Part shown: positions 28,370 to 60,503 of the stretch, one piece after another
Position numbering within the stretch: the first letter of the stretch is position 1
Layout of the letters: every line of letters begins with the position of its first letter
Assembly (NCBI GenBank): GCA_036261885.1
Contig: DATAJY010000015.1
Coordinates: 274,877 to 338,876 of the forward strand
Reading direction: 5' to 3'
DNA length: 64,000 bases
Source of the DNA: Thermoanaerobaculia bacterium
GTDB taxonomy: Bacteria > Acidobacteriota > Thermoanaerobaculia > Gp7-AA8
The notes under the pieces: generated by a model
What the model saw: the letters and a program-made list of their open reading frames with translations, nothing else
What the model was told of the DNA's origin: nothing
Databases searched by the model: none
Program-made: the position numbers and the translations under genes

Positions 28370-30285
28370 CGACTCATTCGCTCCAGAGAGATCGTCGGGA
28401 TGAGCGTCGCCGAGCCGTGGCCTTTCGCCGGAATCGCGCCGGTCACGGCTTCGAGCTTCCACTCGAGATTATGTTTGCGGGTCAGAAGATCGAGTCCGTT
28501 CGCGACCTCGGCGGTCGTCGACGGACGGTCATTCGGATGTTTCTGCATGAGCGCGGTGACGAGCCGCGAGAGCGGCTCCAGCAGCTCGCGATTGCCGTCC
28601 TTCACCGCCTCCGCGAGCGGCGGCGGCGCGGTCAGGATCGCGGCGAGGATGGTTTCGCGCGCACCGTCGCGCTCGAACGGATTCTCGCCGGTGGCGCATT
28701 GATAGAGGAGCACGCCGAGGGAGAAGAGATCGCTGCGCGAGTCGCGGCCGGTCGCGGTCGCAACTTCGGGCGCGATGTAGCCGGGCGTGCCGAAGACCAT
28801 CTCCTGATCGTTCGCGACCGTCATCACCAGCGCGGCCAGACCGAAGTCCGCGACCTTGATGGCGCCGTCGTAGCCGAGCAGCACGTTCGCCGGTTTGATG
28901 TCGTGATGCTGGAAGCCGCGGATGTGCGCGGCTTCCAGCGCGCGCGCCACCGCCGCGCCGATGAGCACCACCTGCTCCGCGGACATCCGGCCGTAGATGT
29001 CGAGATACGCCTGCGCGCTCATGCCGTCGACGAGCTCCATGGCGATGAACGCGGCCTGCGGCGTGTCCTCGACGTCGAAGACCGAGATGATGTTCGGATG
29101 ATTCACGCTCGCCGCGGTGATCGCCTCGACGACGAGCGTGTCGACGAGCTCGCGCGCTTCCTCCGGCGCCACGCTCTCGAAGCGCACGGTTTTCAGCGCG
29201 ACGGGGCGGCGCAGTTTCGGATCCCAGCCGCGGAACACGGTGCCCATGCCACCCTGGCCGATGATGCCGGTGACCTGGTAGCGCCCGAGGAAGACGCGGC
29301 CGAGATCTTCCTGATCGGCGATGCGGCGCTCGATCTTCTCGGCGCTCGCGCGCAGTTGCTCGATCTCGCTGCCGTGCGGAATCGGTGTGCCGGCGAGTTT
29401 CTGCTGCGCGCGGATGACCGCGCGGATCGGCTTGACGATCGTCCGTTGCGCGGCGATGGCCACGAGCACCGCCAGCACGAGCGCGACCGCGGTGGCGATC
29501 ACCGCGCGGCGGCGCATCGTGGCGGCGATTTCGTTGGCGCGCGCGAACGGCTGCCGCGACAGCACGAACCAGTTCGTGCCGGCCACCGGTGCGAACGCGC
29601 CCATGATCTCGTTGCCGTTCGTGTCGTGGTACGCGCCGGTGCCGTTGACGCGTGCGGTGCGCGCGGCTTCGATCATCGGGCGCGGAAACGTCGCCAGCGT
29701 GCCGCGGCCGGCGAGCAGTCCGGCGGGGGAGGCGAGCACCATCTCCGCTTCGTCGCCGACTTCCGCGGGATCGAGCGCATCGTCGATGGTCGGCACTTCA
29801 CCGAGGAGGCGGAGCGTGCCGCCGCCGGCAAATGGTTCGGAGATGAGCAGCCATTGCGAGCCGCCGCTCGACCAGAGCCGCGGCTCGACGGTCAGCGGCA
29901 GCGCGCCGGCGCGGTCGGTGATGCCGCTGCGCTGCGCGCGAATGACCACTTCGTTGCTCGGCGTGACGATGTCGATCATCCCGATCGACGGATCGGAGCC
30001 GAGGATCTCGTAGAGCAGATTCTTCGCGACGTCGGAATGCGGATCGCTGGTGATCGACGCGTTCAGCGCGAGGGAGCGGGCGAACGAACGCCGCGCTTCG
30101 ACGGTGGTGGCGATGCGCTCCGCCGCCGTCGACGCCGCCACCGCGTGCGTGCGCAGCACCTGCTCGTGCATCCCCGCGCGATTGACGTCGAAGAGCGACC
30201 ACACCGCATAGCCGAGCGGGAGCACCGCCACGAGCGCAAGCGCCAGTGAGACACGAACGATGAGCGGCAAGGGACGGCGGAGCAT
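28366..30285 (-). CDS. Eukaryotic-like Ser/Thr protein kinase with N-terminal extracytoplasmic sensor domain and single TM
   Basis: 639 aa. Signal/TM, a ~230-aa periplasmic Cache-like domain, a second TM (AVIATAVALVLAVLVAIAA), then a Hanks kinase (GGMGTVFRG...VALK, HHDIKPANVLL, DFGLA, GTPGYIAPE). Confidence 0.9.
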   Translation of the reverse strand: MLRRPLPLIVRVSLALALVAVLPLGYAVWSLFDVNRAGMHEQVLRTHAVAASTAAERIATTVEARRSFARSLALNASITSDPHSDVAKNLLYEILGSDPSIGMIDIVTPSNEVVIRAQRSGITDRAGALPLTVEPRLWSSGGSQWLLISEPFAGGGTLRLLGEVPTIDDALDPAEVGDEAEMVLASPAGLLAGRGTLATFPRPMIEAARTARVNGTGAYHDTNGNEIMGAFAPVAGTNWFVLSRQPFARANEIAATMRRRAVIATAVALVLAVLVAIAAQRTIVKPIRAVIRAQQKLAGTPIPHGSEIEQLRASAEKIERRIADQEDLGRVFLGRYQVTGIIGQGGMGTVFRGWDPKLRRPVALKTVRFESVAPEEARELVDTLVVEAITAASVNHPNIISVFDVEDTPQAAFIAMELVDGMSAQAYLDIYGRMSAEQVVLIGAAVARALEAAHIRGFQHHDIKPANVLLGYDGAIKVADFGLAALVMTVANDQEMVFGTPGYIAPEVATATGRDSRSDLFSLGVLLYQCATGENPFERDGARETILAAILTAPPPLAEAVKDGNRELLEPLSRLVTALMQKHPNDRPSTTAEVANGLDLLTRKHNLEWKLEAVTGAIPAKGHGSATLIPTISLERMSR

Positions 30286-37173: not shown

Positions 37174-37184
37174 CGGAGCGATCG

Positions 37185-38438: not shown

Positions 38439-38440
38439 CC

Positions 38441-46019: not shown

Positions 46020-46463
46020 ATGGCGTCTTCGATGGGCAATCTCTTCCATTCGTCGCGGCTGCGCTGGATCGCGGAGCGCGCGACCACCGCGGTGTTGGTG
46101 CTCGGTACGCTGGCGCTGCTCGTCTGGCCGCGCTCGGTCGAGCGCATCACCGGCGTGCGCGAATCGTCGCCGCTCGCCTCGCCGGACGATCTGCCGGCGC
46201 TTTCGAAAGACGACGCCACTCCATTTTTCCAGTCGCGCAATCAGGTGGAGATCCGTGTGGCGGAAGCGACGACGCTGCGGCAGTTCCTCGATCGCAATCG
46301 ACTGAACAAGCCGTACCAGCGTCAACAGATCACCGCCCAGCTCGGCAACACGAGTCCCGATGCGCCGATCGCGGCCGGCACCGTGTTCCGCTTGTCGCTC
46401 ACGCCGGTGGCGGTCGACGTGCCGGGCGCACGTCCGGCCACCGCCGCCGAGGAACAGCCGTGA
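46020..46463 (+). CDS. Small membrane-anchored protein (147 aa), first gene of the GTPase/SEDS/PBP operon
   Basis: TM helix AVLVLGTLALLVW. Its stop overlaps the next start (TGATG at 46461-46465). Confidence 0.55.
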   Translation: MASSMGNLFHSSRLRWIAERATTAVLVLGTLALLVWPRSVERITGVRESSPLASPDDLPALSKDDATPFFQSRNQVEIRVAEATTLRQFLDRNRLNKPYQRQQITAQLGNTSPDAPIAAGTVFRLSLTPVAVDVPGARPATAAEEQP

Positions 46464-47509
46464 TGCGGTTCCTCTGCAAGGACTGCTGGCTTTCGCACAG
46501 CGAAGAGACGCTGCTGGCGCGCTGCAAACGCTGCGAGGCGAACACGCGCATCCAGCGTTTCGAGCCGCTCAGTGCGAAAGCCGGTCGCGGCGTGGCGCGC
46601 GGGCCGCTGGTCTGCAGGATTCATCCGACCGAGCCGCTCGACATCTTCTGCGGCGATTGCGAGCGCGCGGTGCCGCCGCGCACGATCATCGGCGATCGCA
46701 GCATCGTGGCCATCCTCGGCGATACGGCTTCGGGAAAAACGTCGTATCTCTGGATCCTCAGCGAACAACTTCGCCGCGCGCACGACGGCATCTTCATTCG
46801 CCAGGCCCTCGGCGATTCGGACGAGCAGCTTGCGAAAGCGGCGCGCGCGATCTTCGAGCGCGGTCGCATGTCGGCGACCGAGCCGACCGACGCGGACGTT
46901 CGCAATTACGCGTGGGAGCTCGCTCTCGGCGAGCGCGCCACGACCGTGATCGCCTTTCACGACGCCGCGGGCGAGGTGTGGAACGAGCTCTCCGGACTCT
47001 CGCGCACCACCTACGATCGCTTCTATCGCTATCTCGATCTGGTCGGCAGCCTGATCTTCGCCATCGATGGCGCGCACGTCGCCGCGGCGCTCGATGCCGA
47101 GGCGCGTCGTGGTGTCACGCCGCCGCTCTCGCGGGAAGCGCAGGTACACGAGCTGGCCATCGTCGATGCCGTGGCACGGCGGTTTCGCGCGCGCGGCGAG
47201 CGCATTCCGGTCGCCGCGGTGCTGACCAAGGGCGACGTGCTGTGGGACCGCGACGACTATCAATGCTTTCGCCCCGACAGCGATGCGGACGGCGAGACGA
47301 TCGGCCGTGCGGTGCGCGAGTTGATGAACAGATCGGGACGCGTGGCGCTCGTGCGTGCGCTCGAAGAAACGTTCGCGCCGGTGACCTGGTTCGCGATCTC
47401 CGCGTTCGGTCATTCGGTGAGCGAGCCGCTGCGGATCGAAGACGTGCGGCCGTCGCGTGTCGCCGATCCGCTGCTGGCCCTGCTCGGCAATCTCGTCACG
47501 CGGACCTAG
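46463..47509 (+). CDS. Zinc-ribbon small GTPase (paralog 1)
   Basis: 348 aa. N-terminal CxxC...CxxC (CKDCWLS...CKRCEAN) plus a second Cys cluster (FCGDCERA). G1 ILGDTASGKTS. G3 VIAFHDAAGE. G4 LTKGD. Confidence 0.8.
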   Translation: MRFLCKDCWLSHSEETLLARCKRCEANTRIQRFEPLSAKAGRGVARGPLVCRIHPTEPLDIFCGDCERAVPPRTIIGDRSIVAILGDTASGKTSYLWILSEQLRRAHDGIFIRQALGDSDEQLAKAARAIFERGRMSATEPTDADVRNYAWELALGERATTVIAFHDAAGEVWNELSGLSRTTYDRFYRYLDLVGSLIFAIDGAHVAAALDAEARRGVTPPLSREAQVHELAIVDAVARRFRARGERIPVAAVLTKGDVLWDRDDYQCFRPDSDADGETIGRAVRELMNRSGRVALVRALEETFAPVTWFAISAFGHSVSEPLRIEDVRPSRVADPLLALLGNLVTRT

Positions 47510-47511
47510 CG

Positions 47512-49212
47512 ATGGCCGACGCCGAGATCCTGCATCGCCTCTACACGAACGCCGCCGAGGAAGGGGCTTTCGATGGCGCGCGCGGGCGGGTGGTGGAGGT
47601 GGAGGAGCGTGATGCATCGCGCGTCGTTCCGCCCGATGTATTGGCCGCGCTCGACGATCTGTTGCGCAAGACCTCGCCGTCGTCGACGCAGACCGGCTGG
47701 GCGGTGCGGCGTTTCGCGAAAGGAAATCAGTCGTACGCGTGCGTCATCACGTCGTATCCCGATCTCGTCGATGCCGCGGACGGTCGCGCCGGCATGCTCA
47801 ATCACGCCCGGCTCATCGTCGTCGATGCACCGTCGTTCGATGTCTCGGCCCTGATCGAAGTGGCGGATGATTTTCCGATCGCCGACGTCTGCGCCGTTCC
47901 TTCGACGCGACGGTTGCGCGCGTATTTGAATGAAATCGCCAATGAATCGGGAGTGCTCGTGCGTCCGGTCTCGCTGAGCGAGCTGCAGCAGGAGCCGCGT
48001 GACCTGCTCGCCGACGTGCTCCTCGGCTGTCTGGCCGCGCTTGGACGTCGCGAGCATGTGCCGATGTCGATCGCGGACGCGCGTGCCATCGCGGTGGCCC
48101 GCGCGTGGGCCGCGCTGCCGCTCGCCACGCAGCGCACGAGCTCGTGGGCCGTCGGCGTGAAGGAGAGCTGTCCCGTCGACGTGATTTTCTCGACCTCGCA
48201 CGGCCAGGCGCCGGTGCATACGGGCTCGAAGGCGCTCGTCGATTGCGTGAAGCAGTACGTGCACCTCTTGCACGCCGCCCCCGAAACGGTGAACGCGATG
48301 CTCACCAACGCGTCGCTCTCCGACAAGACCGCGTTCGCGGCCGCGGTGCAGCGCGCCGCGATCGCTCCCGAAGTGTCGTCGATGGCAGGAAGGGAAGAGA
48401 TGACGAAAAAGGAACGGGCCACGAAGGCGGAGACGCGCGAGCCGCGCACCGAATGGCAACCGCTCGATGCCGACGTGCGCGCGGAGCTGAATCGCCAGTT
48501 CAAGGCGATGGAGGAGGTGCTGCGCCGCACGATCGACGAGCGGCTGGCGGCGTTCGAGGCAAAGCAGCGCGCGCAGGCGCCGTCGCGCAACGAACGGGCG
48601 ACGCTGGCGGGCTCGCTGCTGCCGGTCTGGATCACCGCCGGCATCTTCGTGCTCGCGGCGCTGGCGTGGCTCGGCTACCGTACGTTCGGTCCGCGAAATG
48701 AGCCCGCGCAGCGGCCGTCGTCGTACACGGAGCGCGAGCGTTACGAGGTGAGCGAGCCGGAGCCGAGCACCACGAACGAAGCGCCGCCGTTGAATCCCGT
48801 GCAGTCCGCGATCGCGCGGGCCGAGTCGACGCCGAGTCTCTGGCCCGATGAATTCAAGGCCCTGCTCGAGAACGATCGGGACTTCGTCGCCGGCGCCGTC
48901 AGCGCCGTCGCCGCTCGCGATGAAGTGCCGCGCGATGCGAAAGCCGCGCTCGCGAACTTCGCCACGCGCATCGCCCGCGGCGAGGATCTGCAGGCGGCCG
49001 GCCGCGAGAAATTGCGCGCGCTGCTGCTCGACTGTCTGGCCTCGGACGTCGACGGTGCAAAGGTGAAGATCGACGGCAAGCTCAATGACGTCGCGCCGTA
49101 TCTCGACGCGTTGAAGAAGCGCTATCGCACGAGCAGCACCAGCGATGACGCGACGCAGATGTCGCTGCAGAGCGAGCTCCTCCTGCGCTGGTTGTCGGAG
49201 CGCGAGCGATGA
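47512..49212 (+). CDS. Bitopic protein (566 aa): N-terminal possible roadblock/LC7-like domain, central TM, Ala/Glu/Arg-rich helical C-terminal region
   Basis: ATG at 47512, 3 nt after the upstream stop. TM LLPVWITAGIFVLAALAWLGY. The N-terminal ~120 aa have an alternating beta/alpha pattern (GRVVEV...ACVITSY...ARLIVVDAP). The roadblock assignment is tentative. Confidence 0.65.
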   Translation: MADAEILHRLYTNAAEEGAFDGARGRVVEVEERDASRVVPPDVLAALDDLLRKTSPSSTQTGWAVRRFAKGNQSYACVITSYPDLVDAADGRAGMLNHARLIVVDAPSFDVSALIEVADDFPIADVCAVPSTRRLRAYLNEIANESGVLVRPVSLSELQQEPRDLLADVLLGCLAALGRREHVPMSIADARAIAVARAWAALPLATQRTSSWAVGVKESCPVDVIFSTSHGQAPVHTGSKALVDCVKQYVHLLHAAPETVNAMLTNASLSDKTAFAAAVQRAAIAPEVSSMAGREEMTKKERATKAETREPRTEWQPLDADVRAELNRQFKAMEEVLRRTIDERLAAFEAKQRAQAPSRNERATLAGSLLPVWITAGIFVLAALAWLGYRTFGPRNEPAQRPSSYTERERYEVSEPEPSTTNEAPPLNPVQSAIARAESTPSLWPDEFKALLENDRDFVAGAVSAVAARDEVPRDAKAALANFATRIARGEDLQAAGREKLRALLLDCLASDVDGAKVKIDGKLNDVAPYLDALKKRYRTSSTSDDATQMSLQSELLLRWLSERER

Positions 49213-51938
49213 CGTTGTACCGGATCGAGCACGCGCTGGTGATGGACACCGACGACGTGCCGGGCCGCGGCGGCTACGCCGTGACCGGCATCTCGCCTCG
49301 CGTCTCGCCGGCCGAGCGCTCGTTCATCGCCGGCAACTTCGGCATCAGCGATTACCTGCACGATCCGAAAACCGAGAACCGCATTTTCTATGCGGTGTTC
49401 CGCATTCCCGGCGGCCGTCGCGCGTTCGTGCGCCGCTTCGCGCGCGGTACGGAGCTGCGCCGCAACAACACGCAGCGCCGCCTCGTCGTGCATACGCTGC
49501 TGCTCGATGACGACGTCTGGCAGGAACTGCACGCGTTGCCGTGGCTGCTGCTCAACGCGAGCGTACGACTCGAAGGCGCAACGTCGTGGGATCGTCTGCG
49601 TGCCGACGTTCCGTGGACCGATGACGGCTCGACGCTGCCGGCGCTCGAATGGGACAGCAGCGACGGAGCGGCCGCGAATGCCTGGAAGCGTCTCACCGAT
49701 CGCCTCGGCCTCATCGAGCATGGCGAGCCGCGCGATCTCATCGCGCGCATCCTCACCGCGATGTCGGCGCGCGCCCGCGTCGCGCTGCCGCAGGATGCCG
49801 GCTGGGAGTGGGCCACGATGCTGGCGTGGTCGATGTTGCCGCGCCACGACCGCGATGACCTCGGCTGGACGCAGCACGATTCGATGAATCTCACCGGCAT
49901 CGCGTTCGCGCTCGCCAACGTGCCGGGCGGAGACTTTCACGCATCGCAGGTGCAGCCGGCGAATTTCGCGCACGAGCTCGTGCAGATGAATGTCGAGTCC
50001 GAACGCTCGTGGCTCGATCTGCAGGGCCGCACGTCGCGGCACCCGTTGAGCGTGCGCCACGCCGGCGATCTCGAAAAGTGGGGGAAGTGGCGCAACGCGC
50101 TCCTCGATCTGCACACGCACATCCGCGGCTCGGAAGATGAAGTGGTGCGCTACATGCGCAAGCTCGCGCTGACCGTGAAGGCGAATCCGCGCGCGACGTG
50201 GATCGACGCCGAGGAAGTGCTGCGGCTGGTGTGGTCGAACGTGGCTCAGGACATTCGCGGCGGCGACGCCGTGGCGGTGACGCGGTGGGGACAGCGGCTG
50301 CGCGAAAGCGGGCTGGCCGACGTCGTCTTCGGCGCCGTGCCCGCGAAACACTGGCTCAACGCGGCGGCGAACGACATCGGCAGCGATGCCCTCGTCTGGT
50401 TCTTTCTCAGCGGCGGCGGCGAAGACGAGTCGGCGCGCGGCGCGCGTGCGGCCATCGCCGAATGGCTCGTCGAGACGCGCCTGCACGGCGTCACACCTGA
50501 GCGCGCCACGATGCTGGCGCAGCTGTTGTCGAACGATTACGCGCGGCCGCTCGTGCCGCTGCTCGAACAGTTGCTGGCCACACCCGAAGGGCTGGCCGCG
50601 CTCATCGAGTCCCTCGGCCGTCGCGAGCACGGCGGCCTGGAACTGCTGCATGCCGCGGCGCCGATCGTCGTTGCACGCGCGCATCCGAACGCGCGGGAGT
50701 TTCTGCGCGATCTCTTCGTGCCCCGCTTCGAGCGCACGCGCATCGACGCGAAGCTGGCCCGCGCCATCGCCCTGCTCGTTCGCGACGATGCCGCCACGCT
50801 GCTGCAGTTTCTCGCGCGCGTGCCGACCGACGTCGCCGGTCCGGTGGCGATGTCGCTCGCGCAGGCGGGGCAGCCGGCCAGCGTCTGGCTCGACGTGCTG
50901 TTGCGCATGGCGAAGTCGATCGACGAAGAGAACGACGCCGGCGGCGCGCGCGACTTCGCCGAGATGATGCGCGCGCTCACCGCACGCGAGCCGCTGCTCG
51001 ACGGCGCGATGTCGCGATTCATCGACTTCGTCGCGACCGAACGCCCGCGCGCCCGCGAGTCGATGCGGTCCATCGTCGCGTTGCTGCGCCCCGTCTGGCC
51101 GCAGGGCGGCAGCAAATTCGGGGCCGCGTTGATCGCGCTTCTGCAGCGGGCGCCGAATGCCATCGCGTGGGAAGAGCTCGTCGTCGCGTACGCGAACGAA
51201 CAACGCGCGAAACGGCCCGACGACGTGTCGGAGCTCGCCTCGGTCTGGTGGTGTCTCGTCGAGCCGGATCTGGCCACGCGGAGCGGCGCGCTGCTCGACG
51301 TCATCCGCGGCGACGGCCTTCGCCGTCTCACGGCGCACTGGTCGAAGAAGGTCGGCACGCTGTCGCCGTCTCCCGTGGCCGACAAGCTGCTGGCGCTGGT
51401 GCAGCATCACTCCGATTCGTTCGAGGTCGAGCGCGATCTCGCCTCGCGCGACGTCCGGCACGGCGTGGCGAACGTGCAGACGCTCAATCGTCTCGAGGCC
51501 GCGCTGGCGCGTGTCCATGCAGCGAAAGGATCGCGCCTGTTCGTCGACGACGCACGCGTGTTTCTCGGAGACGGACCGGCCACGCGCGCGGTGCGGCTGC
51601 TGAAAGTGCTTTCGTCCGACGACGTCCATCCGACTGTCCGTCTGGCGTTCCTGCAGCATCTCCTTCCCGAGGTACTGGCGTCACTCCGGAAGGGAGACTT
51701 CGAGGAAGTGAAGCAGCAGACGCGCGAGGAAGATCTGCTCGGACTCGGGGTGGTCGTGCGGCTCGCGTACGCCGTCGGGGCGCGCGCGAGCGGCAGTACG
51801 AGCGCCGGCTTCGAGGCGGTGTGGGTGCGCAACAAACGCAGCGATGCGCTCGATGCATTGCAGGCCGGACGCGCCACGCGCGGTCCGCTGCGCTGGCTCA
51901 CGAGCAGGATGAGGAGCGATGGCCCGGTACAGATGTGA
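49209..51938 (+). CDS. Large (909 aa) predominantly alpha-helical (ARM/HEAT-like) hypothetical protein
   Basis: ATGA overlap with the upstream stop. Leu/Ala/Arg-rich helical repeat composition across ~800 aa. No catalytic motif recognised. Confidence 0.65.
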   Translation: MTLYRIEHALVMDTDDVPGRGGYAVTGISPRVSPAERSFIAGNFGISDYLHDPKTENRIFYAVFRIPGGRRAFVRRFARGTELRRNNTQRRLVVHTLLLDDDVWQELHALPWLLLNASVRLEGATSWDRLRADVPWTDDGSTLPALEWDSSDGAAANAWKRLTDRLGLIEHGEPRDLIARILTAMSARARVALPQDAGWEWATMLAWSMLPRHDRDDLGWTQHDSMNLTGIAFALANVPGGDFHASQVQPANFAHELVQMNVESERSWLDLQGRTSRHPLSVRHAGDLEKWGKWRNALLDLHTHIRGSEDEVVRYMRKLALTVKANPRATWIDAEEVLRLVWSNVAQDIRGGDAVAVTRWGQRLRESGLADVVFGAVPAKHWLNAAANDIGSDALVWFFLSGGGEDESARGARAAIAEWLVETRLHGVTPERATMLAQLLSNDYARPLVPLLEQLLATPEGLAALIESLGRREHGGLELLHAAAPIVVARAHPNAREFLRDLFVPRFERTRIDAKLARAIALLVRDDAATLLQFLARVPTDVAGPVAMSLAQAGQPASVWLDVLLRMAKSIDEENDAGGARDFAEMMRALTAREPLLDGAMSRFIDFVATERPRARESMRSIVALLRPVWPQGGSKFGAALIALLQRAPNAIAWEELVVAYANEQRAKRPDDVSELASVWWCLVEPDLATRSGALLDVIRGDGLRRLTAHWSKKVGTLSPSPVADKLLALVQHHSDSFEVERDLASRDVRHGVANVQTLNRLEAALARVHAAKGSRLFVDDARVFLGDGPATRAVRLLKVLSSDDVHPTVRLAFLQHLLPEVLASLRKGDFEEVKQQTREEDLLGLGVVVRLAYAVGARASGSTSAGFEAVWVRNKRSDALDALQAGRATRGPLRWLTSRMRSDGPVQM

Positions 51939-53016
51939 GAACTGCAACGAGCTCCGCGACGCGGCGATCTGCCCGAAGTGCGGCGCCGACACGCATCGTC
52001 TCGACGAGCAGGCGAGGGACGATCGCAGCACGCCGTCGCTCGACGATCTCGCGTCGCGCGTGAGTCAGCGCGCCGCGGCCACGGAAGCGCCGAAGCCGGC
52101 GCCCGCGCCGCTGCCGGCCGCGCCGCCGCCGGCTCCCGCGGCGCAGCCGCATTCGCAGGCCGTGCCGCCGAGCACGATCATCGGTCTCGACGAATTCCAC
52201 GCGCTGCTCGATCGCGGCACCGAGGCGGTGATCATCTGCGGCGCCGCGCAGACGGGCAAATCGGAGATCGCGGCCGGATACATCCGCGCGAACACGGTCT
52301 ATCGCGGCAAGGCGCAGAACCTCACGTTGCGCGCGGTACTGCGCACCGATTACGCGCTCGGCGGCACCGCGCCCGACGAAGTCTGGTACCAGATCATCGA
52401 CGACAAGAAAGCGTTTCTCGATCCCTCGGGCGAGTTCTTTCGCCGTCTCTCGCCCGATGAGCGAATCCGCTACGGGCTGCCCGATGTGACCGAGGAGAAC
52501 TTTCAGTTCGTGCAGCGCGCGGTGAGCAGACTGGCCGGCATCGTCGTCGTCGTCGATCTCACCTCCGCGATCGATCCGCGCGCCTCGGCGCCGTGGCGCC
52601 GGCAGGAAGACGATCTGAAGTTCGTCCTCTCCGCGCTGCGCTGGCTGCGCTGGGATCACACGGCCCGCCCTGATGCGATCGGGCTGTCGACGAACATCGC
52701 GCAACGGGTGTCGATGTTTCCTCGTATCGACAAGCGGGTGCTCGTGCTTTTCTCGAAAGCGGATCAACTGCCGAAATACACGAATCAGACGCCGCTCGAC
52801 TTCGCGCGGCAGCGGCTGCCGGTGCTCCACGCCGCGCTGATGACGCACGCGAAGCGCTTTCGCTACGACTTCTGCAACACGATGATCAAGACCGAGAGCG
52901 GTGATCAGGCCGTCGATCCTTGCGGCGTGTTGCTGCCGGTGAACTGGCTGCTCGATGACTCGTTCGACTGGCTGCCGCTGCAACTGCCGACGAGCCTCAT
53001 CGGAGGCGGACAGTGA
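51919..53016 (+). CDS. Zinc-ribbon small GTPase (paralog 2)
   Basis: 365 aa. MARYRCENCNELRDAAICPKCGAD zinc ribbon. G1 IICGAAQTGKSE. G3 FLDPSGE. G4 FSKAD. 20-nt overlap with the upstream gene. Confidence 0.8.
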   Translation: MARYRCENCNELRDAAICPKCGADTHRLDEQARDDRSTPSLDDLASRVSQRAAATEAPKPAPAPLPAAPPPAPAAQPHSQAVPPSTIIGLDEFHALLDRGTEAVIICGAAQTGKSEIAAGYIRANTVYRGKAQNLTLRAVLRTDYALGGTAPDEVWYQIIDDKKAFLDPSGEFFRRLSPDERIRYGLPDVTEENFQFVQRAVSRLAGIVVVVDLTSAIDPRASAPWRRQEDDLKFVLSALRWLRWDHTARPDAIGLSTNIAQRVSMFPRIDKRVLVLFSKADQLPKYTNQTPLDFARQRLPVLHAALMTHAKRFRYDFCNTMIKTESGDQAVDPCGVLLPVNWLLDDSFDWLPLQLPTSLIGGGQ

Positions 53017-54821
53017 AATCGAAGGGGAAGCGGCAACTGCAATCTCCCGATCGCGTGTGGTTCCGCGCCGCGCTCGCGGGCACGGTCCTTCTCGCCGCGT
53101 CGCTGGCGTGGTGGTTCTACGCGCATCAGGTCTCGAAGCGGAGCATCGAAGGGGCGCTCACCGCCGGCGCGCGCGAAGAGCTGGCCGCGTTGCCGGTGCC
53201 GGCGATCCGGACCGCGGAAGTGGAACGCTCGTGGGTCGCGGAAGGATTTTCGAGCGAGTCGCTCGTCGCGCCGGTCGGGCCGATGCCGTGTGCCGGTGTC
53301 GTCGACGCCGTGGCCCCGGCCGATCAGAACGTTCTGCGCGAAGCGCTGGCCGCCGCCGCGCAGCCGGATGCCGACGTGCGCATCGAACAGCTGGCGTCGA
53401 TCCACGACGGCGCGCCGCGCAACCTTCTGGTTGCGCAAATGCTCGGCACCGCGCTGGTCGAGGAAGGGCGCTATCCGGAGGGGGAGAGCGTGCTCACCCG
53501 TGGGCTCGAGCAATCGGGTGAGGACGAGACCATCATCCGCGCCGCGCGCGTCAACACGCAGCTCGATCTCGACGATCTCTCCGTCTCGACCGTCATTCAC
53601 CTGCACCACGCCCTCGGCGTCGCGCGGCTCTCGCAGTCGTCCGCCGAGCCGCCGTGGGTCTCGCTCAAGAACGTCATCGGCTCGGTGAAGCCGCTCGCGA
53701 AACGGCGGCTGCTCGGCACGACGCGCGGCCAGCCGGCGTGGAGCCGTCTGCTCATCGCCGCGCCCGGCTGCGCACCGAATGCGTCCCCGCGCGCGCTGTC
53801 GACGTACGACCTCTTCAACAACCTCGTGGTCGGCTACATGCGCGGCACGTTCACCGGCACGAATCGCGATCGCGACCGCGAGTTCTCACGGCCGCGCAAG
53901 AACTATCCGGGCGCGATCCACAAACTCCTGCTCGTCCAGGTCGGACGTGCGAAGGCGAACGACTGGGCCAATGAGGCGCAGCTCTGGGCACTCTCCAACG
54001 TCGAGCAGATCATCGACTGGCGCATGCCCGACGACGCGCGGCTCGCGTTCAATTCCGTGCAGGTCATCGACTGGTGGACCGCGCCGGAACGCTGTCCCGC
54101 CGATGCCTGCACGCCGCAGCTGCTCGGCGAGATCAATAAGGTTCGCGATCAACTCGTCGAGCAGGTGTTCCGGCGCCGCAACGTCGATGAAGAACAGCGC
54201 GGCGCATTCGCTCGCGGTGCCGTGCGACTGCTCGCCACCTCTTCGCTCGATCGCTCGCGCATCGCCGATGCCGCGACCGCGATTCGCGAGTGGCTGCCGC
54301 CCGCGGAACGCCGCACGCTCGACGATCTGCTGAACGCCGATGCCGCGCGCCGCGCCATGCCGCGCCATCTCTTCGCGCCGCAAGCGGCGGACGCGCCGAA
54401 CGCGGATGACGCGCCGCCGCCGGCCGAGCCGCCGTACGCGAAGCTCGGCGCGCGCGCCGACAAATGGCGCGCCGCGGCATTGACGGATGTCGCCGCCATG
54501 GCCGCGAAATGGGCCTCGCAGCGTCCGCCCGCGGAACAGCGCGCCGCGCTCGTGGCCATCCGCCAGCTGCTCGGCGGCGCGGAGGCGCCGCCGGAACTGC
54601 TGCAGCTCGAACGGCAACGCTCGTTCTTCGACCGGCTGCGGTTGCGCATCGTCGCGTCGAAGGCGTACTGGGCTTTCCTGGCGATCGTTCTCGGCCTCTC
54701 GATCTGGTTCGTATTGCTTTGGATTCTCGTGCATGTGCGCGAGGCGCGGCTGCTGCGCGTGTCGCTCTACAACGTCGAACACGAGTACCTCGCGGGGATC
54801 GAGCGCGACCCGCGCCGCTGA
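53013..54821 (+). CDS. Membrane-associated helical protein (602 aa) with N- and C-terminal TM segments
   Basis: GTG start overlapping the upstream stop. TM AALAGTVLLAASLAWWFY. C-terminal TM AYWAFLAIVLGLSIWFVLLWILVHV. The central region is helical and repeat-like. Confidence 0.65.
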   Translation: MKSKGKRQLQSPDRVWFRAALAGTVLLAASLAWWFYAHQVSKRSIEGALTAGAREELAALPVPAIRTAEVERSWVAEGFSSESLVAPVGPMPCAGVVDAVAPADQNVLREALAAAAQPDADVRIEQLASIHDGAPRNLLVAQMLGTALVEEGRYPEGESVLTRGLEQSGEDETIIRAARVNTQLDLDDLSVSTVIHLHHALGVARLSQSSAEPPWVSLKNVIGSVKPLAKRRLLGTTRGQPAWSRLLIAAPGCAPNASPRALSTYDLFNNLVVGYMRGTFTGTNRDRDREFSRPRKNYPGAIHKLLLVQVGRAKANDWANEAQLWALSNVEQIIDWRMPDDARLAFNSVQVIDWWTAPERCPADACTPQLLGEINKVRDQLVEQVFRRRNVDEEQRGAFARGAVRLLATSSLDRSRIADAATAIREWLPPAERRTLDDLLNADAARRAMPRHLFAPQAADAPNADDAPPPAEPPYAKLGARADKWRAAALTDVAAMAAKWASQRPPAEQRAALVAIRQLLGGAEAPPELLQLERQRSFFDRLRLRIVASKAYWAFLAIVLGLSIWFVLLWILVHVREARLLRVSLYNVEHEYLAGIERDPRR

Positions 54822-54828
54822 CGGAGAA

Positions 54829-57588
54829 ATGATGCTGAACTGGACCAGCGTACTGCTGCTCGTGGGACCGGTGGTCCTGCTGCTGATGACGCTTCGCCAC
54901 AACGACGCGCGCCGCCCGGCCGCGTTCCCCGGCCTGCTCTTCGTCTACGTGCTCTGCGCCGCGACGCCGCTCGTCTTCGCGTTGCTGTGGCGGCTCGATG
55001 CCACGCGCGCGTCGATCGAGCTGCATGGCATCGCCTTTCGTACGAGCGGCGCGAACGCGGTGCAGAAGGAGATTCGCGAGCGGCGTGCGAACAGCGGCCG
55101 CATCGTCATCGGCGATCCGGTCTCGCGCCGGACGCGCGCGCAGCAGCGCACCTTCGGCACACTGCACTTCACACCGGCGAAGGCGAGTGCCAGCGGCGCG
55201 CTGCGCATCGATCTCCCGCCGCGCGAACGCCGCTCCGGCCTGATCTCGACGAACGCGACCGGAATCCTCGGCGCGGAGTTGCTGCAGGACGGCGACTCGA
55301 TCTGCATCGGCGGCAGCTGCTGGACGTACGACCAGGGCGATCGCTCGTTCACGCACGCGAAAAACACGATCGCGATTCCGGCCCGTCAGGCCGAACTGCC
55401 GGGACTGGACTGGAGCTTCACGCTTCCGTTCGCGAAACCGATCTCCGCCGGACTGCGCACCTGGTCGGTCGATTTTCTGGCGCGGCAGAGCGGCGCGATC
55501 GCACCGGAGCGCCGGCTGCGCTCGTTCATCGCCCATTCGAATCCTGGTGCCGCGCTGCGTCTCGTCGCACTCGACGAAGACGTGAACCTCGTGCGCAACG
55601 GGGCCCGCGTGCAGACGCCGGTCCGCTTCGACGTCGAGGACGGCGCACGCGTCGCCTTCTACTCCTTGCCGGGCGAGTCGGCGCAGTTCGCCGCCCCCGG
55701 CATCGCCGAGCGTCGCAGCATGATCTATCGCGCCGGCGAGCGCAGCTTCGTGCTCGATCTCGACACGCCCGAGATTCACACGCTGACGATCGACGAACTG
55801 CAGGCGCTCGAGCTGGCGCAGGAGAAAGGGGCAACGCGCAAGAAAATCGCGCTGGCGATGGGCGATGCGGAGCTCGTCGATCGCAGTCTCTATTTCAACG
55901 GTCTCAGCGAATCGGTGGCTGTTGAATCGAATGCGCTGCTCGAGCTCTCGCGTTTCTTCCCGCGCGATTTCGCATCCGCCTTCCGCATCATTTCGCCGCG
56001 CGGACCGGTCGACGCGCAACTCGGCCGCGTGCAGTGGATCGGCACGTCCGATCTCGCGGCCGTGCGGCTCGATGTGCTCCGTCCGCCGCTGCTCCTGCTC
56101 GCGCTCGGAATCGTGCTGCTGCTTTTCAAAGCGGGCGCGGCGTCGGCGATCGGATTGACGGCGACGCAGGCGCTGATGGCCGGCGCAATCGAGTTGCTCT
56201 GCGGCATTCGCCTGCTGATGGGCTGGCGGGTCTGGGCCATGCCGCCGCACAAACTCGAGGCGGCCGAGCTGGCCATGGTGGCGTGGATGGCGCTGCCGTG
56301 GATCTTTCTTGCGGCGATGATCCCGCTGCGCTCGTTGCGCGACTGGCGTGACGCGCGCGTCTCCGCCGCACCGGCGCTGGCGGGGCTCGTCTTCTCCGCG
56401 GTCTTCTGCGCGCGCAGCGTCGCCGGCCCGACGAAATGGGTGTGGGTGCTCTGTCATCTGCTGCCGCTGCTGGCCGTGCTGCTGCGCACCGACGAAGCGC
56501 GCGGGCGATTCGCGAAGCTCGCCGCGCGCGTGAGAACGTGGACCGCGCGCTCGAAACGTTTCGATCCGGAGTTGCTGCCGATCGTCATCGCGGCCGTGCT
56601 CTTCACGCTCGTCCGTCTGATCCTCCTCGCGTTCGGCTGGAAGGAGTCGGCGAGCCTCGGCGTGCGCGTCTCGCTCAGCGTGCTGCACCTCCCCGCGGCC
56701 GTGATCCTGCAGGGCATTTTTCTCTGGCGCACGTGGCAGCGCGTCCTGAAGAACGGCCGATTGCTGAAGGCCGATCTCATCACCGCCGCGGTGATTCTCG
56801 TTTTCGTGTGGGGCTTGCCGGCGGCGATCACCAGCGACGTCGGTCTGGCACTGCTCAACGCGCCGCTGTTCGTGTTGATGCTGCTCGCGATCAGCCGTCA
56901 CGCCGACGAGCGCGCCGGCCGCTGGATTCCACGCCTGCTCGTGGCGATGGTCGTGCTGCTGCTGGCCGGCGGCCCGCTCGCGCGACTGATCCTGCCGCTG
57001 TTCGCCAGCGATGAACTGCTGCTCTCCGCGGCGTCCGATTCCAACTTCGCGCGCGTGCTGCACTTCGCCGCGCCCGAACGCCTGCAGGAGCTGGCGACGA
57101 AACGCGGCGAGTCGCTGGCCATCACCTCCGCGATTCTGCAGAGCTACATCAGCTCCGGCTTCTTCGGCCGCGGCTACGGCCGCTCGGAGGTCAGTCCGCA
57201 TCTCGGCGATACCGCGTTGCGCGACTTCGCCCCCGCGGTCTTCATCGCCGCGGAGTGGGGATTCGCCGGCACCGTCGCCGCGCTGCTCATCTATCTGCTG
57301 TTCGGCATCATCGCCAGCGAGTGGCTGCCGTGGAGCGCCTCGCGTGTCGACGGGCATCCCGGCCCGGCCATCGCGTTCGTCGCCGCGGCCACGATCGCGG
57401 TCTCGAGCATCTACATGATCCTCGCGAACCACGAGCTGCTGCTGCTCACCGGCAAGAATGCGTACCTCTTCGGACTCGATTCGGCCGGCGACGTGATCGA
57501 GATGATCGTGCTGATTCTGCTCATCGCCTGCGGCTCGAGCGTCGTGCGCGAGGAGTCGCAGGCACTCACGTACGGAGACTACGCATGA
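54829..57588 (+). CDS. SEDS (RodA/FtsW)-like polytopic membrane protein with ~450-aa N-terminal extension (possible FHA-like segment)
   Basis: 919 aa. ATG 54829 (MMLNWTSVLLLVGPVVLLLMTL). More than 10 TM helices in the C-terminal half. SEDS signature RDFAPAVFIAAEWGFAGTVAALLIYLLFGII (compare RodA TDFIFAVLAEELGLVG...). N-terminal extension has ...LISTNATGILGAELLQDGDSICIGGSCWTY (FHA-like pattern). Confidence 0.75.
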   Translation: MMLNWTSVLLLVGPVVLLLMTLRHNDARRPAAFPGLLFVYVLCAATPLVFALLWRLDATRASIELHGIAFRTSGANAVQKEIRERRANSGRIVIGDPVSRRTRAQQRTFGTLHFTPAKASASGALRIDLPPRERRSGLISTNATGILGAELLQDGDSICIGGSCWTYDQGDRSFTHAKNTIAIPARQAELPGLDWSFTLPFAKPISAGLRTWSVDFLARQSGAIAPERRLRSFIAHSNPGAALRLVALDEDVNLVRNGARVQTPVRFDVEDGARVAFYSLPGESAQFAAPGIAERRSMIYRAGERSFVLDLDTPEIHTLTIDELQALELAQEKGATRKKIALAMGDAELVDRSLYFNGLSESVAVESNALLELSRFFPRDFASAFRIISPRGPVDAQLGRVQWIGTSDLAAVRLDVLRPPLLLLALGIVLLLFKAGAASAIGLTATQALMAGAIELLCGIRLLMGWRVWAMPPHKLEAAELAMVAWMALPWIFLAAMIPLRSLRDWRDARVSAAPALAGLVFSAVFCARSVAGPTKWVWVLCHLLPLLAVLLRTDEARGRFAKLAARVRTWTARSKRFDPELLPIVIAAVLFTLVRLILLAFGWKESASLGVRVSLSVLHLPAAVILQGIFLWRTWQRVLKNGRLLKADLITAAVILVFVWGLPAAITSDVGLALLNAPLFVLMLLAISRHADERAGRWIPRLLVAMVVLLLAGGPLARLILPLFASDELLLSAASDSNFARVLHFAAPERLQELATKRGESLAITSAILQSYISSGFFGRGYGRSEVSPHLGDTALRDFAPAVFIAAEWGFAGTVAALLIYLLFGIIASEWLPWSASRVDGHPGPAIAFVAAATIAVSSIYMILANHELLLLTGKNAYLFGLDSAGDVIEMIVLILLIACGSSVVREESQALTYGDYA

Positions 57589-60503
57589 CGCCGCGCGGAA
57601 AAATGCTGCTGACCATCTTCGGCATCGCCGTCGTCGCCCTGCTGTGGTGGCGCCAGCGTAACGAGCCGTTGTCGTACTACTCGTCGCGCAGCTACGTGCA
57701 GCGGACGAACGATCTCATTCGCCGCGGCGCGCTCCGTTTCGATTGCGCGGCCGATGAGATCCGGATGACCGATCGTGCGAACGATGCGGAACGGGCGTGG
57801 TTCGCGGCCAGCTATCTGCAGAACGACGTCGAGCTGTTCAATCGCAATCGCGAGTTGTTCGGACACTTCTTCGTCGTCTCCGACTGCGAGCTGCGCGAGA
57901 TCAATCCATTCCTGCGCACCATCCGGCTGCCGTTCGCGAAGTCGACCGAATGGCTCGGCAACATCGAGTACACCGGCCCCGGCTCCGATGCGGCACTGAT
58001 CTCGGCGAACGGCCGCACGCTGGCCATCGAACGGAATGCGGCGGCGGATGGGCTGGCCGGGATCCGTGAGGATGTGCGCACCCGCGTCGGCGATTCCGAG
58101 AGTCTCAGCGGCAGCGTGTTGCACATCGATTTCGCCGGACGCGGGCAGACGCCGGGCGTCGAAGTGCACAACGTCGAAGGGACGGCCATCGTCGAACAAC
58201 GCGTGAAGCGCGGCCAGGCCGCGGAGGTCCGTCTCCTCGGCAACGCCATGAACGAAGGACGGATCACGAAGCTCGAAACCGGAGACTGGCTGCATCTCTC
58301 CGCCGAGTCGCCGGTGCCGCGTTCCGAAACGTTTCTCTACAGCGCCGAACGCCGTTACGAACGCCTGAGCACCGTCCGCACGCGCAACGCGCGGCGCGAG
58401 CGCGTCTTCACCGAAGACGATCCGCTGCTGCAGTGGGTCGGCGGCGATGAAGGGGAGGAGATGCTCACGTTCGGCGAGGCGCTCGCGCGCAGCGTCACGA
58501 ACGCACTGCAGCAGATCGATCCGATGCGCGCCGACGAATTGCGCGAAGGCTTCGACGTGCAGCTCAGCATCGATCGTCCGCTGCAGTCGAAGCTCGACGC
58601 GACGCTGGCCAGTCACGCGAACCGGCTCGTGAACGACGTTGCCGCGGGCGATCCGTTCGCCGCCTCGGTGACGATCATGAACGGCAGGACCGGCGAAGTG
58701 CTCGCGGCCGCGAGCTTTCCCGGCGAAGCCGATCTCGAGGCGATGACCGGCGTTTCGGAGGACGAGCGCCGGCGGCTGCTCGTCAATCACAACTTCAAAC
58801 GGCATCCGATCGGCTCGGCCGGCAAGCCCTTCTTTTACGCCGCGGCCGCGACGCGTCATCCGTTCCTGCTCGACCTCACGGTCGCGCCGCACCTGCCGGT
58901 CGAGCGTCCCGATGGCGGCGAAGGGGAACGCGAGGTGCTGCAGTTCTTCCTCGGCCGCGACTACAAGCTCTGGCCGCACGCCGATGCACCGATCGACATG
59001 CAGTCGGCCATCGAGCGCTCGTGCAACAAATTCACGGTGGAACTGGCGACGCTCGCGCTCGCCGCGCCGCGCGATCTGACGGAACGCACGCTCACGCGTC
59101 CACTCGCTCAGGTCTTCGCGCGACAGGCGAACGTGGTCTGGCCGAAGCCGGGCGTTGTCTTCGATGGTCCGCGCATCAACGGGCAGCCGGTCGATTTTCC
59201 GATCGACCTCGGCGTCTACATGAAGGACGACGGACAGCCGGTCGGCCCGCGCGAAGAGACCACCGCGGTGGTCACGCCGGGCACGCTCGATCGCATCGAC
59301 GAGGCGCCGTTCATCGAAGCATTCGGCGATCTCACCGGCGTGCGGACGTACGCCGGTCTCGACGCGCCGAACGTGCCGAAGGAAGGGAACGAAGGGCTCA
59401 CGCGCACGGCTCTTCACTACGACCTCCGCCCCTGGTCGAAGCTGCTGACCATGCTGATGCAGGGAGAGGATGAAGAGCACGCGTGGAAAGTGCGCGCCGC
59501 GCTGCAATCCGTTTCGCCGGAACGGGTGAACCTCTCGCTCAATCAGGTCACCGAGTTCCGCACGGAGCTCGTCTCGCTGCTCCTCGGCGGCTCGACGTCG
59601 CAATGGACGAACGTGCAGCTCGCCGAAGCGTTGTCGCGACTCGTCACCGGCCGGCAGATCGAAGCGTCGATGGTCCACACGGTGCGTCCGCGCAAAGGAG
59701 CGGTCGAAGAGCCGATCGCCGTGGCGCCGCCGCTGTCGCCACAGACGATCTCTCCGGAAGCGCGGACCACCGTCTTGCGCGGCATGAGACGCGTGATCCT
59801 CGGCGCGCACGGCACGGCCTTGCCGATGGCCGCGCGCGTGCACGAGCTCGAACGGCAATTTCCCGGATACAACGTGGCGGTCTTTTCGAAGACCGGCTCG
59901 CCGACCGTGCAGCGTCCGGAGAGCAAGCCGACCGGCGAGATCCTGCGGCAGCTCGTGCGCCGCGGCTATCTCTTCTATGACGGGAAGCAGCTCGTGGTGT
60001 CGACCGATCGGCAGAAGGCGGCCGTGCCATACGCCGCGCGCGGCACGAAGGGTCGGGCCGCGTTTCTCGACGCGCTCACGCGCGCCTCGCGCATCGCCGC
60101 ACGTCAGCTGGGCCGCAGCGCCGGTCCGCGCACCATTCCGCGCATCGCCTCGTACGCCGATCGCTTCTCGCGCTATCGCAGCCGGCTGGTGTTCGTTTCG
60201 CCGGCCGCGGTGCGGCTCGATGAGGCAGCCTCGTCGCCGATCCACGTCGTGGCCGGCTCGCTGGTGCTCAATCGCGATCACTCGATTTTCGACAAGACGC
60301 AGCAGGCCGATTCGAGTGCCGCGTACGTGATGTCGATCGTGAAGTGGCGCGGCAGCGGCGAGATCCCGACGCCCGAGGAGCTGGATCAGCCCGATGCGCG
60401 CGTCGTGACGGCGGTTTTCTATCTCGACATCGGACCAGGGAGCGCGGTGGCGGTGGAGCTCGCACGGACGATCGTGCCGGAGCTCGTGCCGCTTCTGCAA
60501 TGA
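57585..60503 (+). CDS. Class-B penicillin-binding-protein-like transpeptidase (972 aa, membrane-anchored, with long insertions)
   Basis: ATGA overlap with the SEDS-like gene. TM MLLTIFGIAVVALLWW. SxxK IGSAGKPFF. SxN ERSCNKF. KTG VAVFSKTGSPT. VTIMNGRTGEVLAAASFP is typical of the bPBP pedestal/TP junction. Confidence 0.8.
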   Translation: MTPRGKMLLTIFGIAVVALLWWRQRNEPLSYYSSRSYVQRTNDLIRRGALRFDCAADEIRMTDRANDAERAWFAASYLQNDVELFNRNRELFGHFFVVSDCELREINPFLRTIRLPFAKSTEWLGNIEYTGPGSDAALISANGRTLAIERNAAADGLAGIREDVRTRVGDSESLSGSVLHIDFAGRGQTPGVEVHNVEGTAIVEQRVKRGQAAEVRLLGNAMNEGRITKLETGDWLHLSAESPVPRSETFLYSAERRYERLSTVRTRNARRERVFTEDDPLLQWVGGDEGEEMLTFGEALARSVTNALQQIDPMRADELREGFDVQLSIDRPLQSKLDATLASHANRLVNDVAAGDPFAASVTIMNGRTGEVLAAASFPGEADLEAMTGVSEDERRRLLVNHNFKRHPIGSAGKPFFYAAAATRHPFLLDLTVAPHLPVERPDGGEGEREVLQFFLGRDYKLWPHADAPIDMQSAIERSCNKFTVELATLALAAPRDLTERTLTRPLAQVFARQANVVWPKPGVVFDGPRINGQPVDFPIDLGVYMKDDGQPVGPREETTAVVTPGTLDRIDEAPFIEAFGDLTGVRTYAGLDAPNVPKEGNEGLTRTALHYDLRPWSKLLTMLMQGEDEEHAWKVRAALQSVSPERVNLSLNQVTEFRTELVSLLLGGSTSQWTNVQLAEALSRLVTGRQIEASMVHTVRPRKGAVEEPIAVAPPLSPQTISPEARTTVLRGMRRVILGAHGTALPMAARVHELERQFPGYNVAVFSKTGSPTVQRPESKPTGEILRQLVRRGYLFYDGKQLVVSTDRQKAAVPYAARGTKGRAAFLDALTRASRIAARQLGRSAGPRTIPRIASYADRFSRYRSRLVFVSPAAVRLDEAASSPIHVVAGSLVLNRDHSIFDKTQQADSSAAYVMSIVKWRGSGEIPTPEELDQPDARVVTAVFYLDIGPGSAVAVELARTIVPELVPLLQ

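Follow-up and report, generated by a model that had tools for sequence, protein, structure and literature searches.

We analysed a 64,000-nucleotide stretch of DNA from a Thermoanaerobaculia bacterium (Acidobacteriota; assembly GCA_036261885.1, contig DATAJY010000015.1, positions 274,877 to 338,876 of the forward strand), referred to here at its full length as the window. Our subject is the open reading frame (ORF) at 54829..57588 on its forward strand, which an earlier note had read as a giant SEDS-family protein whose long cytoplasmic extension contains an FHA-like segment. Profile and alignment evidence indicates that the encoded protein is a deeply divergent relative of the SEDS proteins RodA, FtsW and SpoVE, with a homology that is clear at the level of the family. 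Together with the penicillin-binding protein (PBP)-like product of the next gene, it is in essence a pair of a SEDS protein and a class B PBP (bPBP), the architecture and operon context of which are unprecedented. We consider it fairly likely that the pair is a specialised SEDS-type glycan polymerase with its own transpeptidase, coupled to a GTPase switch. The proposed fusion of an FHA domain to a SEDS polymerase, on the other hand, is not supported.

The length given in the earlier note was exact, since the ORF list and the translation of the window both show 919 codons and a stop. The neighbouring gene on the 5' side stops at 54821, and the gene on the 3' side starts at 57585, overlapping the stop codon of the SEDS-like gene. 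The G+C content is ~67% in the window and 68% in the genome, and long chance ORFs are therefore plentiful. An example is a 1099-residue ORF on the reverse strand (54133..57432), which shadows most of the SEDS-like gene, is rich in Arg and Ala in the manner of high-G+C chance ORFs, and is regarded as a non-gene. A search of 5.8 billion proteins, however, retrieved 81 relatives of the SEDS-like protein. Those nearest to it over the full length, with 93% identity and 918 residues, share its initial 'MLxWTS', and nearly all come from metagenome bins of Thermoanaerobaculia. These homologues and their common N-terminus show that 54829..57588 is a real, conserved gene and not a chance ORF.

Homology to SEDS proteins was assessed in two sets of sequences, namely 51 orthologues, used for the counts of PF01098 matches and of FHA residues, and a broad family set of 50 members reaching down to 20% identity, used for column conservation. 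PF01098 was matched by 15 of the 51 orthologues over profile positions 135-324, with E values from 6e-6 to 3.7e-9; the best match scored 36.5 bits against a gathering score of 26.4, and most of the 15 lay above the gathering score. A comparison of the family profile with the PDB matched the RodA protein of T. thermophilus (TtRodA, 6BAR/6PL5) at E=0.01. There, 'LRDFAPAVF..AAEWGF' was aligned over RHTDFVFSVWAEEWGF, which places D799 on the catalytic residue D255 of TtRodA, and in the D255A entry, 6BAS, the position aligned with D799 is an Ala. The signature RDFAPAVFIAAEWGFAG (residues 798-814), which had been taken as the mark of a SEDS protein in the earlier note, is thus aligned with the TtRodA motif that holds D255. 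A local hhalign comparison with a two-sequence template of E. coli RodA (EcRodA) and FtsW gave a collinear alignment from transmembrane (TM) helix TM3 to TM10 at E=6e-4 to 1e-3. D799 fell on EcRodA D262 in this alignment, 'TSDVGLALLN' lay over 'QPDLGT', and the motifs of extracellular loop (ECL) 4 were also paired. D670 is thereby aligned with EcRodA D159 and TtRodA D152, the 'PDLG' Asp that lies between TM5 and TM6; this residue and D255/D262, at the end of ECL4, are both essential in RodA.

Both acidic positions are retained throughout the broad family set. D670 and G672 are invariant in all 50 members, and position 799 is Asp in 14 and Glu in 36, so that it is acidic in every one. R596, E606, G814, T874, G875, N877 and S885 are also invariant over the 50 members, and the TGKN motif at residues 874-877 is invariant in the family. 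As expected of a SEDS protein, ten TM helices are predicted in the core, TM7 is joined to TM8 by a large extracytoplasmic loop, and the C-terminus is predicted to be cytoplasmic; the charge bias is consistent with this topology. Loss of the catalytic Asp, which the earlier note had named as the outcome that would speak against a SEDS assignment, was not seen. The reading of the protein as SEDS-related, abnormal in its size and conserved at its catalytic acidic positions, is supported.

The gene that overlaps the end of the SEDS-like gene encodes an atypical transpeptidase of class-B-PBP-like type. Its product scored 23.3 bits (E=4.3e-5) with PF00905, for which the cut-off is 22.1, and had a partial match to TIGR03423 pbp2_mrdA at E=1.8e-12. 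The motifs SAGK, SCN and KTG are kept in five PBP-like orthologues, and they align with STVK, SAD and KSG of E. coli PBP2. A Pfam scan detected no pedestal (PBP dimerisation, PF03717) domain in the protein. According to searches with hidden Markov models (HMMs) of the operon proteins, nearly every locus with sequence on the 3' side has the PBP-like gene directly after the SEDS-like one. We also observed that residues 1-300 of the PBP-like protein (57585-58500) are strongly conserved among its orthologues (for example 'YYSSRSYV', FNRNRELFGHFF and REINPFLRTIRLP) and correspond to no known pedestal or other domain.

Eight genes are read in the same direction here (46020..60503; Table 1), with the SEDS-like gene in seventh place, and their junctions are overlapping or near-contiguous. 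The order of the genes is identical at the loci of relatives numbered L001, L006/7 and L010-L022, which include a 5-Mb Thermoanaerobaculia genome and many contigs. The product of gene 2 carries the GTPase motifs GDTASGKT, DAAGE and TKGD as well as a Walker-B Glu, and its orthologues in L001, L004 and L006 are annotated with the DO-GTPase family too. Gene 5 encodes the motifs CxxC...CxxC, GAAQTGKS and SKAD, and is conserved 5' of the SEDS-like gene, Gemmatimonadota loci included. The two GTPase-like proteins have 'AVPPxTIIG' in common, with a BLASTP E value of 0.034, and there is no Pfam DO-GTPase match for gene 5. The topology given for the gene 6 product is predicted from its positively charged N-terminus; orthologues occupy the same position, and a distant one in L004 matched TPR_19 at E=1.2e-5. 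As a separate observation, genes 3 and 4, which overlap by 4 nucleotides in the window (47512-51938), are a single gene for a 1554-residue protein in L001 (2366-7030). The two are split in L006/L007 too, which makes fusion or split a property of the lineage rather than an artefact of a frameshift.

When each GTDB species was represented by one genome (~185,000 species), 29 SEDS-like loci were found. The carriers belong to Thermoanaerobaculia and other Acidobacteriota, to Gemmatimonadota (Longimicrobiales and Gemmatimonadales), to Candidatus Multivoradales and to Candidatus Achromatium. In the Gemmatimonadota loci, the HMMs also found the small protein and a zinc-ribbon GTPase 5' of the SEDS-like gene.

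These features suggest how the system may work. The data show the homology, the conserved catalytic positions, the gene pairing and the conservation of the operon; the topology is predicted, and the substrate, the enzymatic activity and control by the GTPases are inferred. The SEDS-like protein would most likely polymerise a lipid-linked precursor of the lipid II type at the outer face of the inner membrane, and the strand would be passed for cross-linking to the co-translated 972-residue PBP-like enzyme, whose SxxK, SxN and KTG motifs are intact, following the logic of RodA-PBP2, FtsW-FtsI and SpoVE-SpoVD. The beta-rich domain of the SEDS-like protein (described below) and the bitopic 602-residue protein may replace or supplement regulators of the pedestal-domain, MreC or FtsQLB type. 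The two cytoplasmic zinc-ribbon GTPases and the large proteins without recognised domains could then form a switch or scaffold that sets where and when the pair acts. The role of such a system could be that of a morphogenetic or developmental machine, as for SpoVE-SpoVD, or it could be the envelope output of a DO-GTPase conflict system.

The latter role deserves separate consideration. If the cluster were a DO-GTPase conflict (defence) system, the SEDS-like and PBP-like proteins would be its envelope effector or sensor, sealing or remodelling the wall, for example, on attack by a phage or toxin, and would not serve housekeeping or developmental morphogenesis. The first GTPase is a bona fide DO-GTPase by PF19993 and PF19975, with two zinc ribbons and the Walker-B Glu, and the operon includes another GTPase-like gene of the zinc-ribbon type (gene 5). 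In the known systems, DO-GTPases are described in pairs, TM components are frequent and there are domains that bind the cell wall (Kaur et al., 2020, eLife 9:e52696, PMC7159879), and the patchy distribution of the family, in 29 of ~185,000 species, would also suit a defence function. However, DO-GTPase conflict systems are defined by hypervariable effectors (PMC7159879), whereas gene content here is constant between relatives. PADLOC gave no match for the pair, and SEDS, FtsW, RodA and transpeptidases are absent from the text and one supplementary file of Kaur et al. (PMC7159879). In addition, no GAP1 domain was detected by Pfam in the 566- and 909-residue proteins or their orthologues, a result that belongs equally with the points against our own proposal that are gathered below. 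We regard a defence system of this kind as unlikely.

Several observations weigh against the assignment of the protein as a SEDS polymerase acting with a transpeptidase. The window protein alone had no match in Pfam, NCBIfam, PADLOC or, by phmmer, the PDB. PF01098 was matched by only three of the 50 broad-family members, the signal being lost in the more distant ones, and a broader family profile (A3) lost the RodA match and gave chance SemiSWEET matches instead. Foldseek of the full-length AlphaFold model against the PDB returned no RodA or FtsW; all of its matches had TM-scores near 0.1 and were meaningless, so that this search is uninformative rather than negative. The Glu/Lys pair of 'QPSE..K' in RodA ECL2 (EcRodA E114/K117) is not conserved in the favoured alignment. 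ECL2 lies in a low-confidence stretch of the hhalign comparison, where the hairpin at residues 607-615 and P622 are kept, A624 and Q/E628 occupy the positions of E114 and K117, and the invariant R596 and E606 are nearby. Finally, the PBP-like neighbour is not present at L026 (Ca. Achromatium palustre) or on one contig seen as L004/L005/L023. With regard to that contig (ERZ26661914 NODE_200), we note that a MarR/acetyltransferase gene follows the distant SEDS-like gene in L004.

Some of these points would also fit a SEDS-derived scaffold, flippase or receptor that does not polymerise, or a Wzy/WaaL-like polymerase or ligase of another undecaprenyl-linked glycan. The divergence of the protein is indeed extreme, and BLAST with E. 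coli RodA and FtsW failed to retrieve it; nor did this search detect a canonical SEDS gene, either in the window or among the loci compared. The apparent loss of the ECL2 pair and the lack of a PBP partner in L004/L023 and L026 point in the same direction. Nevertheless, both catalytic acidic positions and many motifs lining the pocket are invariant in 50 sequences, no member has a Wzy_C or O-antigen-ligase Pfam match, and a PBP with a full D,D-transpeptidase active site is a near-universal partner. We consider a non-polymerising or Wzy/WaaL-like role improbable, and we retain the reading of a glycan polymerase with its own transpeptidase.

We then examined the part of the protein that precedes the SEDS core. 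Hydropathy gave 15 TM helices in all, and the AlphaFold model also contains 15 helices of membrane length, in agreement with the claim of more than ten. The earlier note had described a single initial TM helix. A TM segment is indeed found at the N-terminus, but there are two helices (residues 2-23 and 33-53), and three more (residues 421-496) follow the soluble domain. The linker between the first two, RHNDARRP, is Arg-rich and predicted to be cytoplasmic, with a family mean of 3.2 Lys and Arg against 0.7 Asp and Glu in the 50 members. A conserved loop motif, RxWxMPPxxxEAxxLA, lies among the helices at residues 421-496 and is predicted to be periplasmic. No similarity of these three helices to EcRodA or the SEDS core could be detected. 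Two further readings were considered, that the N-terminal TM module is a partial duplication of the SEDS core and that the loop 'RVWAMPPHxLEAAELA' (residues 466-482) is the true ECL2 motif of a SEDS protein. Both were rejected, hhalign giving E=0.47 against the core and 0.85 against EcRodA.

Between these two groups of helices lies a domain of 365 residues that is specific to the family. Modelled alone with AlphaFold2, it reached a pLDDT of 88.7 and a pTM of 0.85 and was almost wholly composed of beta-strands, with no significant fold match in the PDB or BFVD and Foldseek TM-scores near 0.1. When 1.84 billion representatives were searched with a profile of this domain, 53 clusters (50% identity) were retrieved, and all 53 matches have the same architecture (the domain at about residues 55-440 of proteins of 860-1070 residues) or are fragments. 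Cys159 and Cys164, which lie in a hairpin of the domain, are both present in 12 of the 50 members and both absent from the other 38, a co-occurrence compatible with a disulfide.

The domain had been described as a cytoplasmic extension, and the analysis of TM topology predicts instead that it is periplasmic. In structures of RodA and FtsW, the N- and C-termini of the SEDS core are cytoplasmic, and counting helices back from the core with its termini so placed puts residues 56-420 on the periplasmic side. The distribution of charge is in keeping with this prediction from TM parity: over the 50 sequences, Lys and Arg sum to 26.6 in the predicted cytoplasmic loops and to 11.1 in the predicted periplasmic loops and flanks. 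The N-terminus itself is uncharged in these sequences.

The string ISTNATGILGAELLQDGDSICIGGSCWTY, on which the reading of an FHA domain was built, is present at residues 139-167, but its match to the FHA core pattern is not significant. It amounts to a GR dipeptide and a generic 'L-x-DGD-x-I-x-G' hairpin, which are only partly conserved in the family. An FHA consensus used as a control retrieved 46 FHA chains from the PDB, and a mini-profile was built from these. Aligned with residues 85-167, it gave an hhalign probability of 2.4% and HMM scores of at most 6 bits, whereas genuine FHA domains score far higher. In ~90 distinct family members, the Pfam models for FHA and Yop-YscD (PF00498, PF16697) had no match at E<=0.1, and no FHA chain was matched by the family profile in the PDB at E<=10. 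Foldseek of the domain model placed no FHA protein among the top 50 and nothing at E<=0.001. The 11-stranded beta-sandwich fold of solved FHA domains was thus not recognised in it. The earlier note had named the lack of an FHA-fold hit as decisive against a fusion, and Pfam, the PDB profile, Foldseek and hhalign all gave that outcome; the 53 matches to the domain profile also included no FHA protein. InterPro may list architectures of FHA with FtsW/RodA/SpoVE in some Firmicutes and Actinobacteria.

Key residues expected of a phosphopeptide-binding site are likewise not conserved in the family. Among the 51 orthologues, the positions that would contact phospho-Thr are variable (S99 is A12/R8/S7/T7 and N142 is E10/S9/T9), and no His corresponding to that of the FHA SxxH motif is conserved. 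One might still suppose that the first ~115 residues of the beta domain are a degenerate FHA-like (or SMAD/YscD-like) beta-sandwich that has lost phosphopeptide binding and serves as a periplasmic protein- or glycan-binding module. About ten short strands at residues 60-182 of the confident model and the weak collinear similarity to FHA domains would agree with this, but the negative profile and Foldseek results apply here as well, and we know of no FHA domain reported from the periplasm. We consider such a derivation quite improbable.

The earlier note had further linked the SEDS-like protein to phospho-Thr signalling through a eukaryotic-like Ser/Thr kinase. The kinase is present, at 28366..30285 on the reverse strand, with a Pkinase domain at E=6e-46. 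It lies ~25 kb upstream on the opposite strand, however, separated from the operon by a MacB-type ABC exporter and a Calx-beta protein of 2035 residues, and was not found near those orthologues whose called neighbourhood genes were listed. The link is not supported. A beta domain on the periplasmic side, as predicted, would moreover be incompatible with signalling by a Ser/Thr kinase. Control of the polymerase by this or another Ser/Thr kinase through a cytoplasmic, phospho-Thr-binding FHA domain is therefore very improbable, even though residues 85-167 are collinear with the FHA consensus from GR to DGD-x-I-x-G (pairwise hhalign E 0.019 over 67 columns), a four-sequence FHA mini-HMM gave 4.0 bits (per-sequence P ~0.003), GR (with R91) is kept in 44 of the 51 orthologues and a Pkinase gene lies in the window. 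The kinase has an N-terminal, sub-threshold match to dCache_1 (30.4 bits against a cut-off of 45), which suggests a sensor kinase with an extracytoplasmic ligand-binding domain; this is unrelated to the operon.

Table 1. Genes of the operon and parts of the SEDS-like protein, with positions in the window or residue numbers.
Feature	Position	Strand	Basis
Gene 1, small single-TM protein, ~147 residues	46020..46463	+	tblastn to 146-residue gene of L001, 57% identity; frame and start
Gene 2, DO-family GTPase, 348 residues, two N-terminal zinc ribbons	46463..47509	+	PF19993 DO-GTPase2 E=5.8e-12; PF19975 E=8.5e-6
Gene 3, 566-residue protein, no recognised domain	47512..49212	+	sub-threshold DotU match only
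Gene 4, 909-residue protein, no recognised domain	49209..51938	+	
Gene 5, second zinc-ribbon P-loop GTPase-like protein, 365 residues	51919..53016	+	weak Zn-ribbon and AAA_16 Pfam matches
Gene 6, 602-residue bitopic protein, TM helix at each end, predicted periplasmic middle, possibly TPR-like	53013..54821	+	translation
Gene 7, SEDS-like giant membrane protein, 919 residues	54829..57588	+	ORF and translation; 81 homologues; AlphaFold full-length model, pLDDT 80.9
Two extra N-terminal TM helices, residues 2-23 and 33-53	54832..54987	+	hydropathy; AlphaFold2 helices
Family-specific beta-rich domain, residues 56-420, predicted periplasmic	54994..56088	+	AlphaFold2 model; profile search
'FHA-like' stretch within beta domain, residues 85-167	55081-55329	+	
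Three more extra TM helices, residues 421-441, 445-470 and 476-496	56089..56316	+	hydropathy; AlphaFold2; column conservation
SEDS-homologous core of ten TM helices, residues 503-907	56335..57549	+	PF01098 in orthologues; family profile against PDB; hhalign; column conservation
Beta-hairpin in SEDS core	residues 607-615		
D670	56836-56838	+	aligned with EcRodA D159
ECL4, ~80-residue loop between TM7 and TM8	residues 726-801		
D799	57223-57225	+	aligned with TtRodA D255 / EcRodA D262
Gene 8, atypical class-B-PBP-like transpeptidase, 972 residues, N-terminal TM helix	57585..60503	+	PF00905, TIGR03423, motif alignment

Other genes of the window were observed in passing. The Calx-beta protein (39807-45914, forward strand), directly 5' of the operon, combines 11 Calx-beta repeats (E=4e-178) with a right-handed beta-helix region. 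The tripartite MacB-type exporter (35845-39667, forward strand) is encoded by a gene for an HlyD-family adaptor and, after it, two genes for MacB_PCD/FtsX permeases. At 9524-13603 on the reverse strand lies a gene for a transglutaminase/DUF3857/TPR protein of ~1400 residues, 42% identical to the product of a gene 3 kb 3' of the operon in L001 (18438-22523), a loose synteny that may or may not matter.

Growth and division of bacteria have SEDS-bPBP pairs at their core, and these pairs are targets of antibiotics. To our knowledge, every characterised pair is directed by a cytoskeleton, of MreB or FtsZ, or by a sporulation programme. We tentatively propose that Acidobacteriota (Thermoanaerobaculia) and Gemmatimonadota possess a further SEDS-bPBP wall-synthesis machine, which may be organised by a pair of zinc-ribbon DO-family GTPases and large scaffolds and not by MreB or FtsZ, and whose polymerase would be equipped with a periplasmic domain of its own, regulatory or substrate-binding, with a fold that has no detectable relative. 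If this is true, a deeply divergent pair is hard-wired to two GTPases hitherto discussed only for conflict systems, which would suggest a new way to position and switch wall synthesis, or else a defence system with wall synthesis as its output. It would also mean that SEDS proteins can carry a large, predicted extracytoplasmic domain and additional TM helices. Members of the family are carried by two major soil phyla and are missed by standard profiles, and most of them are annotated as 'hypothetical protein'.

Nothing relevant was found in searches of the literature on FHA-SEDS fusions, on accessory SEDS proteins in Acidobacteria or on SEDS proteins in DO-GTPase systems, and a 2025 survey of SEDS and bPBP architectures (Microlife 2025, PMC12516126) does not describe this family, FHA fusions or links to GTPases. 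The giant SEDS-bPBP fusions of that survey resemble the present protein in their unusual size and non-canonical architecture. They are, however, composed of recognisable glycosyltransferase, pedestal and transpeptidase domains, whereas the SEDS-like protein is not fused to a transpeptidase and its extra domain has no detectable relation to known domains.

In common with the DO-GTPase/GAP1 systems, the operon encodes a DO-GTPase that has a Walker-B Glu and a pair of N-terminal zinc ribbons. Gene 5 adds another GTPase-like protein with a zinc ribbon, which may be a paralogue, and several TM components point to action at the envelope. Unlike those systems, however, the operon has no detected GAP1-N, GAP1-M or GAP1-C and a fixed gene content in place of variable effectors, and a SEDS-like/PBP-like pair is not among the partners given in PMC7159879. 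The actinobacterial fhaA-fhaB-pstP-rodA-pbpA-pknA-pknB operon, the analogy drawn in the earlier note, is similar in that adjacent SEDS and bPBP genes are found with genes for cytoplasmic signalling proteins. In the present operon, GTPases stand in place of the FHA proteins, PP2C phosphatase and kinases, and the extra domain has no detectable relation to FHA domains and a predicted location outside the cytoplasm.

A parallel can also be drawn with RodA-PBP2, FtsW-FtsI and SpoVE-SpoVD. Common to these pairs and to the one described here are the core of ten TM helices with a large TM7-TM8 loop, the acidic residues where RodA has D152/D159 and D255/D262, the ECL4/TM8 motif 'G-x-G-x-G ... (T/R)D(F/H) ... 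EE(L/W)G', and an overlapping gene directly downstream for a monofunctional transpeptidase with SxxK, SxN and KTG motifs. In contrast, the ECL2 Glu/Lys pair is not evident here and the window protein misses PF01098, while the PBP-like partner is 972 residues long, with no detectable PF03717 pedestal. The SEDS-like protein is more than twice the usual size, with five additional TM helices and a predicted periplasmic beta domain of 365 residues, and the operon partners of the pair are zinc-ribbon GTPases in place of mre or dcw genes.

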